A stretch of 64,000 nucleotides of DNA from Smithella sp. (GTDB taxonomy: Bacteria > Desulfobacterota > Syntrophia > Syntrophales > Smithellaceae), in contig JAGOMJ010000007.1 of the NCBI GenBank assembly GCA_017993615.1, positions 1,587-65,586 of the forward strand. Reading direction: 5' to 3'. The notes under the pieces were generated by a model that had not been told where the DNA came from, ran no database searches, and saw only the letters and a program-made list of their open reading frames with translations. The stretch's first letter is position 1; the number at the start of each line of letters is the position of its first letter. Position numbers and translations under genes: made by a program. This document shows, one piece after another, positions 25,455 to 45,224 of this stretch.

Positions 25455-25655
25455 AAAAGACCCCCGCCTATGCCGTGTTAATCACCTTTTTTGAACCTTT
25501 TAACAAGGTGGGAACCGGTATTGGTTGTTTCAGGCTTTCTGCTTCCCGACCAGCTCAGGAAAAAGCGGACATGCACACCACAATCAAGGATAAGGTCCCA
25601 AGGTCAAAATGTTGGCTCAAAAACAAATGTCAATCACGCACATCGCAGGGGCTAA
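25455..25655 (-). ncRNA. ssrS: 6S RNA
   Basis: The minus-strand transcript starts about 15 nt after the zapA stop, as in the E. coli zapA-ssrS arrangement. Its segments parallel the E. coli 6S sequence I recall: UGAGCCAACAUUUUGACC vs UGAGCCGAUAUUUCAUACC, AAAGCCUGAAAC vs GAAGCCUUAAAAC, and CACCUUGUUAAAAGGUUCAAAAAAGGU vs CACCUUGAACCAAGGGUUCAAGGGU. The 5' GCCCCUGC pairs with the 3' GGCGGGGGUC closing stem, followed by UUUUUU. Ends are approximate. Confidence 0.75.
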
Positions 25656-39131: not shown

Positions 39132-40058
39132 TTGCAATTGTATAAGTGGAGTATGTCAAACGAACAGAAAAACATAATGCTCAACCCCTTGAGCCAAAAT
39201 ACCGGGAATGACAATCCGGATGCTATTCTTATTCAGCATGCTCTGGACGGCAACAGAAAATCCCTGGAGCAACTGGTGGCCGACCATCAGCCATGGATTT
39301 ATAACATCGCGTTCAAGATGATCATGGATCATGACGACGCGGCGGACATCACCCAGGAAATACTCATTAAAATCATCACGAATCTGGCATCCTACAACCC
39401 CGACAGAGGAAATTTCAGGACGTGGGCCTACCGGATTGTGGTCAATCATGTGCTTAATATGAAAAAAAGGAAGTTTGAAACGCGGATCTATGACTTCGAC
39501 CGCTACATTGCCGCCATTGAAAATTTTCCGGATGACAGCTCATTTACGCATCCCGACGCGGGCCTTCTGGCCGAAGAAGTCAAAACCGGCTGCATGATGG
39601 GTATGCTGCTGTGCCTGAAGCGCACCGAGAGAATTGCTTTTCTTCTGGGAGCCGTTTTTGCCGTGTCCGATGCCGTCGGAAGCGAGTTGATGGATATATC
39701 GCGGGAAAATTTCCGGCAACTGCTTTCGCGCAGCCGGCGCAAGGTATTTAATTACATGAACGGAACCTGCGGCCATATGAACCCCGCCAACAAGTGTCGC
39801 TGCTCGCACAAAGTGAAGTCCTTTCTCGACCTGGGCATGCTGGATTCCGCAATACTCAGGTATCACCGCCCGAACTCGCGCATGGTGAAGGACATGCTGG
39901 GCTCCCGGCTCGAAAGGTTTCACCTGTCCTACTATGAACCCTTCCTGGCGTTATTCAGGGAGCAGCCTTTTTATGATCCGCCGGATGTTACATCCTGGCT
40001 GGACGATATCCTGAGGCAGGAGGATCTCAAAGCGATTTTCAACCTCGGGGAAGAATGA
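39132..40058 (+). CDS. ECF-type sigma-70 family factor with Cys-rich C-terminal extension
   Basis: Region 2 (DAADITQEILIKII...FRTWAYRIVVNHVLN) and region 4 (ERIAFLLGAVFAVSDAVGSELMDISRENFRQLLSRSRRKV), then CGHMNPANKCRCSHK and about 90 further residues. The start is uncertain: TTG 39132, TTG 39138 (better SD spacing) or ATG 39153. Confidence 0.8.
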   Translation: MQLYKWSMSNEQKNIMLNPLSQNTGNDNPDAILIQHALDGNRKSLEQLVADHQPWIYNIAFKMIMDHDDAADITQEILIKIITNLASYNPDRGNFRTWAYRIVVNHVLNMKKRKFETRIYDFDRYIAAIENFPDDSSFTHPDAGLLAEEVKTGCMMGMLLCLKRTERIAFLLGAVFAVSDAVGSELMDISRENFRQLLSRSRRKVFNYMNGTCGHMNPANKCRCSHKVKSFLDLGMLDSAILRYHRPNSRMVKDMLGSRLERFHLSYYEPFLALFREQPFYDPPDVTSWLDDILRQEDLKAIFNLGEE

Positions 40059-40115
40059 TGCAAACCCGCAATCGTTGGAAAAAATTAAATACGGGTAAGA
40101 AAGGAGACGTGTTGC

Positions 40116-40751
40116 ATGAATCACTTTAAGAAATACTTTTTAACATTTTTGCTGGTGACGTGTTTACCGATCATCGGCTGGGCAAGCGATCAGCAGGAAA
40201 TAACTGCTGCTATCGATTATCCCCAGTTGGAAAAACGCATTGCGGATCTCTCCGTCACGAACATGAAGGGCGAGGAGGTTGCTTTTGAATCCCTTTGGAA
40301 ACACAATCGCGTTGTGCTGGTGTTTATACGCCATTTCGGGTGAATGTTCGCCAGGCAGCGGGCTGCTGCCTTAATGGAGATAAAAAAACAAATCGAGGCA
40401 AACGGAGCAAAAATCTTGATTATCGGGAGCGGCACACCCGAGCAGGCAAAGACATTTGCCGAGAATTTCAACGTCGAACTTGATATCTATGTCGATGAAT
40501 CTCTTCAGACATACAATGCCTTTTCGCTTGAGCGCGGATTCTTCAAGACCCTGGGGTGGAAATCACTCAAGTGCGGTGTTAGAGCCATGCAGAGCGGCTT
40601 CCACCAGGGCTTGAGCGCCGGTGACCTCTGGCAACAAGGCGGGGTATTTGTCCTGGGTCCGGGCAAACAAATCGTTTATCAGCATGTGGAACAATACGCG
40701 GGCGAGCCGCTCGAAAAAGACGAGGTTTTGCAGGCGATTAAAAAAAGATAA
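40116..40751 (+). CDS. secreted PRXL2/AhpC-TSA_2-family thiol oxidoreductase selenoprotein (in-frame UGA = Sec at 40341-40343)
   Basis: Track ORFs 40116..40343 and 40344..40751 are in the same frame, separated only by TGA. The TGA falls exactly where this family has its active-site Cys (VVLVFIRHFG-U-MFARQ vs the family pattern F.RHFGC..CR). A hairpin lies 10 nt downstream. Neither half would be a complete domain on its own. N-terminal signal peptide. Confidence 0.8.
40353..40371 (+). promoter_or_regulatory. bacterial SECIS-like hairpin
   Basis: AGGCAGC-GGGCU-GCUGCCU: a 7-bp stem with a G-rich apical loop, starting 10 nt after the UGA, within the usual SECIS distance. Confidence 0.6.
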
Positions 40752-43314: not shown

Positions 43315-44499
43315 TCAATGGTGGAACAGGCGCAGGCCGCAAAACGCCATCACGATCCTGTATTTGTTGCAGGTGTCGATGACCTGCTGGTCGCGGATCG
43401 ACCCCCCCGGTTCGACAATGGCGGTTACGCCGCTGCGGCGGGCGCGTTCGATATTATCGCCAAACGGGAAGAACGCGTCGCTTCCCAGGCAAACGCCGGT
43501 TACCTTGCTGAGCCATTTCTGCTTTTGCACCCTGGTCAGGGATTTGGGCTGCTTCGTAAATGTTTGGCCCCAGACATCATCGCCGATGACATCTTCCGGT
43601 GTTTCGCCCAGATAAACATCAATGGCGTTGTCGCGGTTGGGTTTGGCAACATCGTCGCGGAAAGGCAGATTCAACACTTTCGGCATATGGCGCAGTTGCC
43701 AGTTGTCGGCTTTCTGTCCGGCAAGCCGCGTGCAGTGAATGCGGCTCTGCTGTCCGGCGCCGACACCGATAACCTGGCCGTCCTGTACATAGCAAACGCT
43801 GTTGGACTGTGTGTATTTCAAGGTAATCAACGCAAGTACGAGATCGCGTTTCTGCGCGTCGGTCAGTGTTTTGTTTTCGGTTACAATGTTTTCCAGCATG
43901 CGGCTGTCGATTTTCAAGTCGTTTCGTCCCTGCTCGAACGTGATGCCGTACACCTGCTTGTGTTCCAGGGAAACGGGCACGTAATCGGGATTGATCTTCA
44001 CCACGTTGTAATTGCCGCTTTTTTTGGATTTCAAGATTTCCAGAGCTTCCGGCTCATAACCCGGCGCGATGATTCCGTCAGTAACTTCATTTTTGATTAT
44101 TTTAGCCGCGGACACGTCGCACGCATCGGAAAGCGCAATCCAGTCGCCGAAACTGCTCATGCGGTCGGCGCCGCGGGCGCGCGCGTAGGCACAGGCCAGC
44201 GGGGAGAGCTTTATTTTGGAATCGATGTGATACATTTTGCGCAACACTCTGTCCAAAGGATAACCCAGAGCAGCGCCTGCGGGAGATACATGTTTAAAGG
44301 AGGCTGCCGCCACCATGCCGGTATTTTCCTTGAGTTCTTTGACCAACTGCCAGCTGTTGAAGGCGTCCAAAAAGTTGATATAGCCGGGCTTGCCGTTTAA
44401 GACGTCCACGGGCAGATGGCTGCCGTCCGCCATGAAGATTCTCGCCGGTTTCTGATTGGGATTGCAGCCGTATTTCAGTTGTATTTCGTTCATGATCAT
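43315..44499 (-). CDS. purH: AICAR formyltransferase, stand-alone (PurH transformylase domain only)
   Basis: LKYGCNPNQ, ASFKHVSPAGAA, YARARGADRMSSFGD and AIVEPGGSIRD. There is no MGS-like IMP cyclohydrolase domain. Confidence 0.88.
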   Translation of the reverse strand: MIMNEIQLKYGCNPNQKPARIFMADGSHLPVDVLNGKPGYINFLDAFNSWQLVKELKENTGMVAAASFKHVSPAGAALGYPLDRVLRKMYHIDSKIKLSPLACAYARARGADRMSSFGDWIALSDACDVSAAKIIKNEVTDGIIAPGYEPEALEILKSKKSGNYNVVKINPDYVPVSLEHKQVYGITFEQGRNDLKIDSRMLENIVTENKTLTDAQKRDLVLALITLKYTQSNSVCYVQDGQVIGVGAGQQSRIHCTRLAGQKADNWQLRHMPKVLNLPFRDDVAKPNRDNAIDVYLGETPEDVIGDDVWGQTFTKQPKSLTRVQKQKWLSKVTGVCLGSDAFFPFGDNIERARRSGVTAIVEPGGSIRDQQVIDTCNKYRIVMAFCGLRLFHH

Positions 44500-45224
44500 T
44501 CCTCCACTGCTTTATATTTGTTAATAATGACGTCTTTACAGGTTTGCGTCTTGAGATCGACGGCGCGCACAAAAAGACTGACTTTGTTTTCTTCATTTAA
44601 TGCATCCCAGAGTTTTGCAGCATACCGGTCGGGATCTTCTTCATCGATTATGACGCGCATCGGTTCGCCCTGAAAGCTTGGAATCGGCGTGCCGTTGCAT
44701 TTATAAGTGCTGATAAAGTGTCCCTCGCCGGACAGCGGCTGAGCATAATTGAAGGTAAAACGCTGCACGCTTTTCTCATCCCCGCCGCAACTTTTTAAAA
44801 TATTGATCTTGTAAGCGCCTGTTTTCATATCCACCATACCGGAAATACGCGGCGTCCAGTTGGGACTGTCGTCTTCAAACGTGCGGGTATTTAACGCGGC
44901 TTCGAAATGAAAGCCCGGAAATTTGTTTTGCGACATGAAATCATAGATTGTATTGGTCTGATCACCGTTGGTCACGATGGTTGTTTTGGCAAAGATCAGT
45001 ACCGGATTGTAAATAATCAGATGCGGATCGGTCATTTTGGACGGGTCGGCAGCCTTGGTGCGGATGCCCCCTTCAATTGGATCAAATACACGGTTACGGC
45101 TGTTGGTGCTTCTGCCCATGATGAAGTAGGCAATCACGGCTTTGCCGCCGGGCGTCATCCCGATACAAATACCGCGTCCCGGATAATCGTTGCCGGCCAG
45201 AAATTCATATAAATTATTTTTCAT
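44496..45224 (-). CDS. purO: PurO-type (archaeal-type) IMP cyclohydrolase
   Basis: YPGRGICIGMTPGGKAVIAYFIMGRSTNSRNRVF resembles the PurO family. Its stop overlaps the purH start by 4 nt. Confidence 0.75.
   Translation of the reverse strand: MKNNLYEFLAGNDYPGRGICIGMTPGGKAVIAYFIMGRSTNSRNRVFDPIEGGIRTKAADPSKMTDPHLIIYNPVLIFAKTTIVTNGDQTNTIYDFMSQNKFPGFHFEAALNTRTFEDDSPNWTPRISGMVDMKTGAYKINILKSCGGDEKSVQRFTFNYAQPLSGEGHFISTYKCNGTPIPSFQGEPMRVIIDEEDPDRYAAKLWDALNEENKVSLFVRAVDLKTQTCKDVIINKYKAVEE

Follow-up and report, generated by a model that had tools for sequence, protein, structure and literature searches.

An in-frame UGA, probably read as selenocysteine, in a PRXL2/AhpC-TSA_2 oxidoreductase gene of Smithella sp.

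Background

Does the TGA at 40341-40343 in a 64-kb stretch of Smithella sp. DNA end one gene, or is it a codon within a longer one? The stretch, called the window here, is the whole of the 64,000 nucleotides analysed (GenBank assembly GCA_017993615.1, contig JAGOMJ010000007.1, positions 1,587 to 65,586 of the forward strand), and coordinates are those of the window unless another locus is named. Two open reading frames (ORFs), 40116..40343 (75 aa) and 40344..40751 (135 aa), lie in one frame with this TGA as their sole separator. Read through, the junction is VVLVFIRHFG-*-MFARQRAA. An initial annotation described the two as a single gene for a secreted thiol oxidoreductase with selenocysteine (Sec) at the TGA, and its coordinates and junction agree with the window sequence.

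Is the TGA a genuine stop, an error in the assembly, or a sense codon? And if it is a sense codon, for which amino acid? We consider it very probable that 40116-40751 is a single PRXL2/AhpC-TSA_2 (PF13911) oxidoreductase gene in which the UGA at 40341-40343 is decoded as selenocysteine. Three things carry this conclusion: the two ORFs are one translated unit, Sec and Cys are equivalent at the catalytic position, and a hairpin that is conserved and co-varies stands at selenocysteine insertion sequence (SECIS) distance.

Results and discussion

The joined product and its active site

The complete coding sequence, 40116..40751 on the forward strand, would specify a 211-residue precursor of the PRXL2/AhpC-TSA_2 thioredoxin-fold family with Sec at residue 76, an assignment based on Pfam, a PDB match and selection on both halves. 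A Shine-Dalgarno sequence read from the DNA, AAAGGAGA (40100..40107, forward strand), lies 9 nt 5' of the start codon, and the true stop would be the TAA at 40749..40751 (forward strand).

For profile searches of the joined protein, Cys was written at the TGA. The joined product of 211 residues then scores 82 bits against PF13911, AhpC-TSA_2, for which the gathering score is 27. A second match, to PF00578 at 38.7 bits, covers residues 40-139 and crosses the TGA, and the 75-aa N-terminal half alone has no Pfam family match. The claim that neither half is a complete domain is borne out by these results. Among NCBIfam models the best match is to NF040769, 'SelL-related redox protein', which covers residues 41-207 and scores 116.6 bits, below its cutoff of 120. 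Against the PDB, the family profile finds PRXL2B, the prostamide/prostaglandin F synthase (9us9, E = 8e-22, residues 44-203), and the thioredoxin fold is assigned by this sequence match.

The RRFG-C-VV-C-R of 9us9 aligns column for column with the RHFG-U-MF-A-R of the window protein (U being Sec), and exactly those two motif Cys of PRXL2B are changed to Ser in the mutant structure 9usa. Because of this alignment and this double mutant, the in-frame UGA (40341..40343, forward strand), our proposed codon for Sec76, is placed at the nucleophilic residue of a thioredoxin-fold CxxC enzyme, in the column of the catalytic first Cys. The same column is the first Cys in about 60 Cys-type homologues, and the initial annotation was right to name it as the redox-active position.

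It was right too about the second, resolving Cys of the motif. By alignment that column holds Ala79 (GCC, 40350..40352, forward strand), which makes the motif U-M-F-A. Most sequences of the clade of Smithella and Desulfobacterales have A, S or T as the fourth motif residue, and C is confined to two loci, L005/L013. The only other Cys of the mature protein, C153, is not conserved. Typical peroxiredoxins carry the peroxidatic Cys in PxxxT/SxxC, with T/S at position -3. That PF00578 motif is absent here, where the sequence is F-I-R-H-F-G-U with no Thr or Ser at -3.

The UGA codon in related loci

The plainest alternative is that the TGA is a real stop. The locus would then be a pseudogene, or would produce two small proteins, a secreted peptide of 75 aa and a cytoplasmic fragment of 135 aa, through TGA-ATG stop-start coupling. 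Gene callers annotate the locus in this way everywhere, an ATG directly follows the TGA in the window, and TGA is a normal stop in the host genome. Against this stand the relatives of the gene. In a database of 5.8 billion proteins, 35 of 36 homologues are gene calls of 124-193 aa that cover only the C-terminal 48-64% of the query. At the DNA level, six such homologues each have an upstream orphan ORF in the same frame that ends in TGA at the same column (6/6), and these loci read FLRHFG-TGA-MF[A/S/C]RQQAA. A scan of one genome per GTDB species gave 80 loci, the best at 53% identity. The close ones have TGA in 12 of 12 cases, all of them Desulfobacterales, including Desulforapulum autotrophicum and Desulfatitalea alkaliphila, and in two more distant ones, L020 and L021, xxC comes after the TGA. 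The TGA stands in the same column (RHFG-TGA-xF-x-R) in all 25 of the independent Sec-type loci checked, which range in identity from 88% to about 35% and come from several phyla; these were L001, L003-L021, L092-L094 and L096, and L002 duplicates L001. About 60 further loci have TGC or TGT in that column and read RHFG-C-x-x-C-R-E; they come from Armatimonadota, Bacteroidota, Actinomycetota, Cyanobacteria, Chloroflexota, Acidobacteriota and others.

Both sides of the TGA are maintained. By the Nei-Gojobori method, comparison with four orthologues gives a dN/dS of 0.14-0.22 over the 45 codons that precede the TGA and of 0.13-0.20 over the 120 that follow, so that the two halves are under equal purifying selection, with omega of about 0.15-0.2. 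In L016, L018, L020, L021 and L096 the TGA is followed by a codon for Leu, Ile or Ala that is not a start codon, and a separate downstream gene is therefore impossible there. In the window itself, the ATG at 40344 has no Shine-Dalgarno sequence of comparable spacing 5' of it. A real stop would also leave neither half as a complete fold, with the break at the catalytic residue, and would have to coexist with the conserved, co-varying hairpin 3' of the TGA. The conserved TGA, the dN/dS on both sides and the missing downstream starts together exclude a pseudogene, two independent genes and a genuine short protein, and we regard a true stop as very improbable. The concern that close homologues might simply end here as short proteins is thereby answered, with the TGA and both flanks conserved in 25 of 25 loci.

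Could the TGA be a sequencing or assembly error in a Cys-type gene? TGA is one base away from either TGC or TGT. The same TGA nevertheless recurs in four independent assemblies that come from separate studies, anaerobic-digester metagenomes among them, with 0-1 differences over the length of the gene. In the assembly collection 355 blocks index the exact 135-aa product, and the orthologues in other genera all have TGA. An error is already refuted by the independent assemblies, and we give it practically no credence.

A general reassignment of UGA was rejected, as TGA is a normal stop here and ends 21 of the 55 long ORFs in the window. Among the 37 TGA-joined ORF pairs listed in the window, none looks real apart from 40116-40751.

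Three observations on individual relatives may be recorded here. The metagenome-assembled genome at L021, labelled Spirochaetaceae (HK-STAS-MYXO-51), holds a Sec-type copy (RHFG-TGA-LFCRE) and a Cys-type paralogue (RHFG-TGC-IFCRE) about 1.6 kb apart (at about 4190 and about 5803). On a contig that is nearly identical to the window, the gene is frameshifted in its C-terminal half (L093 3001-3396; P0008 end ...SARPLATRRGICPESG...), either through a mistake in assembly or because this strain's copy is decaying. Some close relatives have Pro/Thr-rich, low-complexity C-terminal tails (P0004-P0006, from L092 3001-3513, P0022 and P0172); in P0022 the C-terminus carries a PF14237 domain, and P0172 reaches 294 aa, so that domains or tails have been added to the Sec-type protein.

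A hairpin downstream of the UGA

The initial annotation had also pointed to a SECIS-like hairpin after the UGA, and here the comparison of loci strengthened its case. In the window the hairpin is AGGCAGC / GGGCU / GCUGCCU (40353..40371, forward strand), with the 5' arm at 40353-40359, the loop at 40360-40364 and the 3' arm at 40365-40371. It begins 9 nt after the UGA and has 6-7 bp, and the core common to the orthologues is 40354-40370. For the comparison, 17 distinct sequences from the Smithella/Desulfobacterales clade were aligned, without gaps, over 48 nt counted from the UGA. RNAalifold, with no stem supplied, returned a 6-bp stem of columns 14-19 with 25-30 and a 5-nt loop; in the 7-bp version 95% of cells are paired. 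The pair 15-29 is GC in 11 sequences and UA in 6 and is unpaired in none, a compensatory change, and the covariation score of the alignment was reached by 0 of 500 column shuffles. Column 15 is a synonymous third position of an Arg codon and column 29 the second position of an Ala, Asp or Glu codon, and for this reason the covariation is hard to explain by constraint on the protein. In the loop, G21 and G22 are invariant. The third codon position in the stem, 27, is U in 17 of 17, and the third codon position in the loop, 24, varies.

Sec-type loci also have more structure than Cys-type loci when each is measured against synonymous recoding with its own codon usage (mean z -1.45 versus -0.46, Mann-Whitney p = 0.0012). 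L096, a distant Sec-type locus from an organism of 67% GC, has another stem, GUGAGC/GCUCAC, in the same columns, with the loop AGGUC.

The bacterial SECIS model has the loop beginning about 17 nt past the UGA, and the loop G of E. coli fdhF is at about +23. Criteria of the bSECISearch type call for a stem-loop directly 3' of the UGA, about 16-37 nt from it, whose apical loop contains a G. The hairpin here has a 6-7 bp stem at +14..+30 and an invariant GG in its loop, and both its spacing and its loop G fit the model.

Selenocysteine or cysteine?

Several points weigh against selenocysteine as the residue inserted. Within the 64-kb window there is no selA, selB, selD or tRNA-Sec; the window has no tRNA at all, and its 30 long ORFs annotated with Pfam are housekeeping genes, among them UvrB, TyrRS, RNase Y, Dus, PurD, AICARFT, MutY, Obg and ProB, with no sel gene. 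To our knowledge, selenium has not been shown experimentally in any member of the pfam13911 selenoprotein family. The hairpin is short, and its conservation is partly entangled with that of the peptide RQQAAA. Taken alone, the window hairpin is not significant against dinucleotide shuffles (z = -1.22) or against synonymous recoding (z = -1.86); its significance arises only from comparison across loci. Rfam gave no SECIS match, either at the gathering threshold over the whole window or at E <= 10 over 40250-40480, where the matches were chance miRNA and snoRNA ones only. Because bacterial SECIS elements are poorly covered by Rfam, this last result was not counted against the element. Finally, the selC* tRNA-Cys of some Smithella and related genomes could place Cys at the UGA.

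This last point is the basis of an improbable alternative, which shares the hairpin and the full-length protein with our reading and differs in the amino acid. A selC* tRNA-Cys, which in some lineages has a UCA anticodon, would be brought to the hairpin by a second SelB (selB*) and would recode the UGA to Cys, giving a Cys76 protein, or would give a mixture of Sec and Cys that depends on selenium. Mukai et al. (PMC5389517) reported selC* tRNA-Cys in a Smithella composite genome and selB* beside selC* in Syntrophobacterales and Desulfobacterales, and showed for E. coli that a tRNA-Cys(UCA) is able to suppress an opal Sec codon. The same study, however, found that every genome with selC* also has the full canonical Sec apparatus. 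TGC or TGT would be a simpler way to encode Cys, and the roughly 60 Cys-type relatives use it. The resolving Cys, moreover, has been lost mainly within the TGA clade, which suggests a chemistry specific to selenium.

Selenocysteine, then, remains the reading we favour, and what is known of the hosts is consistent with it. The UvrB encoded in the window is 100% identical to proteins from NCBI metagenome-assembled genomes that bear the name Smithella sp., and the Smithella composite genome of Mukai et al. has selA, selB, selC and selD. Peng et al. (2016) put the number of selenoproteins at 32 for D. autotrophicum HRM2, at 13 for D. oleovorans Hxd3 and at 16 for Syntrophus aciditrophicus, and orthologues of the gene described here are present in two of those three species. 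The literature on Smithella sel genes and the selenoprotein-rich hosts of the orthologues would thus lend indirect support to the presence of the Sec machinery.

Export signals and a possible mechanism

The N-terminus of the window protein, MNHFKKYFLTFLLVTCLPIIGWA followed by SDQQ, has a K-rich segment, a 15-residue hydrophobic core and GWA|SD. It is predicted to be a classical n-h-c signal peptide of the Sec type, residues 1-23 (40116..40184, forward strand), a prediction from sequence features that are kept in the 88%-identical L092 (MNRFKRYFVAVLLLLCLPVIGWA then NPEQ); L001 has a similar signal peptide. The features claimed in the initial annotation are therefore present, but its view that a periplasmic location is uncommon for such proteins was overstated, as exported selenoproteins have precedent.

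Among the N-termini of L001-L021, L092, L094 and L096, lipoboxes (LTGC, ASGC, AAGC, VMGC) are found in L003, L004/L008, L007, L009, L010, L014 and L017, and L015 has a lipobox-like LTTC. L005/L013, L006, L016, L018-L021, L094 and L096 have no signal peptide. In this small sample the forms with an export signal are all UxxA or UxxS, and those without are mixed (C, S, T or A in the fourth position) and often UxxC. A link between export and one-selenol chemistry is possible on these motifs.

From the above we infer a course in which Sec is inserted with the help of SelB, the protein is exported, and a single selenol works with an external resolving thiol. Translation starts at the ATG at 40116, which lies behind a good Shine-Dalgarno sequence. 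With the UGA in the A site, the hairpin at 40353-40371, with its apical GG, would recruit SelB-GTP-Sec-tRNA(Sec) and Sec76 would be incorporated, a step drawn from the standard bacterial SECIS mechanism. For this decoding step the UGA, the position of the hairpin, its base pairing and the loop GG are conserved. Translation would then continue to the TAA at 40749. The signal peptide would direct the protein to the Sec translocon, with probable cleavage after Ala23, and several orthologues would instead be lipid-anchored through their lipobox. In the mature protein, Sec76 falls where the nucleophilic first Cys of RxxG-C-xx-C would be, as the alignment with about 60 Cys homologues and with 9us9 shows. 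Since Ala replaces the resolving Cys and the protein has no further conserved Cys, we propose that it works through one selenol to reduce peroxides or else disulfide or sulfenyl substrates, and that its selenenic acid or selenenylsulfide intermediate may be resolved by an external thiol partner.

Are the members with export signals, those of the window and its Desulfobacterales orthologues, functionally distinct enzymes, periplasmic or lipid-anchored and with one selenol? We offer this tentatively and think it rather unlikely. If true, it would mean a new extracytoplasmic, selenol-based defence against peroxides or sulfur species, or a redox relay, in strict anaerobes. It is also conceivable that in these lineages the codon is decoded as Sec or Cys according to selenium supply, through selC*/selB*.

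Extent of the Sec form and its annotation

How common is the Sec form? A full HMMER search with the C-terminal half against 1.84 billion cluster representatives gave 890 matches. Of the best 150 (P0172-P0318), only 26 have the RHFGC motif, and 124 are without the active-site motif because their gene calls start after the TGA. About 50 of the best 150 begin exactly MFCREQ..., one residue after the Sec column, and most others begin at the next start codon. Two such distant clusters, followed to the DNA, both have RHFG-TGA-[M/I]FCREQ and a hairpin. On these gene calls and the two clusters checked in DNA, the Sec form, mostly UxxC, is far commoner and more diverse than the single UxxS entry of the catalogues implies.

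The gene is split or shortened in every public source examined, including RefSeq, just as had been expected of automated annotation. The orthologue of D. oleivorans (Desulfosudis oleivorans), for example, is a 134-aa 'peroxiredoxin-like family protein' in RefSeq (WP_232362734.1) and the 144-aa Dole_1319 in GenBank. The practical value of the finding thus lies in annotation, as protein databases systematically hide the active site of this PRXL2-like Sec family. For Smithella, a key syntroph of anaerobic digesters, it also extends the selenoproteome by a single-selenol protein of thioredoxin fold that is apparently exported.

Neighbouring genes

Upstream of the selenoprotein gene, with 58 nt between them, lies a sigma-70-family gene (39132..40058, forward strand) with which it may be co-transcribed. 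Pfam matches region 2 alone in this ORF, whose long, Cys-rich C-terminal extension includes a Cys/His-rich patch, GTCGHMNPANKCRCSHK. In L088-L091 and L093 the two genes are still neighbours, and in the 88%-identical L092 a GGDEF gene stands there instead. Regulation by the sigma-factor gene was considered, and no functional link between the two is claimed because the adjacency is lost in so close a relative.

Two other features of the window may be noted. A 6S/SsrS RNA at 25457-25654 (reverse strand) matches RF00013 over its full length at 91.7 bits and is the sole Rfam match in the window at the gathering threshold. An AICAR transformylase domain (PF01808) adjoins a separate gene for a PF07826 IMP cyclohydrolase-like protein of the archaeal PurO type (43315-44499 and 44496-45224, both reverse strand), and this pair stands in place of the fused bacterial PurH.

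Relation to known selenoproteins

Is this a new selenoprotein family? The initial annotation implied novelty, and in this it went too far. The pfam13911 family, equal to cd02970 PRX_like2, is a predicted selenoprotein family with the motif UxxS in Zhang et al. 2022 (PMC9312934), and the same UxxS family appears, again as predicted, in a 2026 AEM review (PMC13188914). It is catalogued under the names 'AhpC/TSA family protein' and 'peroxiredoxin-like family protein'. Both catalogues credit Zhang and Gladyshev 2007, a metagenomic study of the delta-proteobacterial symbionts of Olavius, which remarked that mis-annotation affects essentially all selenoprotein genes. The window protein shares with the catalogued family the Pfam/CDD domain and a single Sec placed first in a U-x-x-small motif, the hosts are likewise delta-proteobacterial sulfate reducers or syntrophs, and the orthologues L001 and L006 are exactly UxxS. 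Unlike that family it is itself UxxA, and its membership of the same clade would follow from domain and Sec position rather than from comparison with the exemplars CAB1081847.1 and MDX2448127.1. Signal-peptide or lipoprotein forms and a large UxxC Sec population are not mentioned in the catalogues. The family, the recoding mechanism and exported selenoproteins have thus all been described already; the work opens no long-standing question and is a routine repair of annotation. What it adds is modest: the UxxA motif, the signal-peptide and lipobox forms, and the extent of database truncation.

In eukaryotes the clearest relative is PRXL2B (FAM213B), of the SelU/PRXL2 family, whose homology to the window protein extends over residues 44-203. 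The SelU family exists in Sec and Cys forms. We take SelU1-3 to be PRXL2A-C. Unlike the window gene, the Sec forms of eukaryotic PRXL2/SelU use a SECIS in the 3'-UTR, and the second Cys is kept. PRXL2B, moreover, is cytosolic and thioredoxin-dependent, and its prostaglandins are not a bacterial substrate.

Two groups of Prx-like selenoproteins are also close. SelL, which is found in marine bacteria as well, has a UxxU diselenide motif. The SelL-related model NF040769 narrowly misses the window protein, as given above, but the gene has one UGA and its fourth motif position is Ala, so that no diselenide could form; membership of SelL was rejected on the single UGA. The 'Prx-like thiol:disulfide oxidoreductase' selenoproteins (pfam00578, UxxC or UxxU) occur in Geobacter, Syntrophus and others. 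They resemble the window protein in their thioredoxin fold, in having Sec first in the redox motif and in their similar anaerobic hosts, and differ from it in that its primary match is to PF13911 (82 versus 39 bits) and in the flanking RHFG-U.

For export there are other precedents. Haft and Gwadz described selenoprotein substrate-binding proteins and lipoproteins with signal peptides. MccSep, a periplasmic multihaem selenoprotein of Geobacter sulfurreducens (bioRxiv 10.1101/2025.11.18.688581), has its signal peptide cleaved, and its periplasmic location has been shown experimentally. In fold and chemistry MccSep, a cytochrome c polysulfide reductase, is unrelated to the window protein. Like the window gene, however, it was mis-annotated as two genes at the UGA, has a SECIS-like hairpin within 30 nt and encodes an N-terminal signal peptide.

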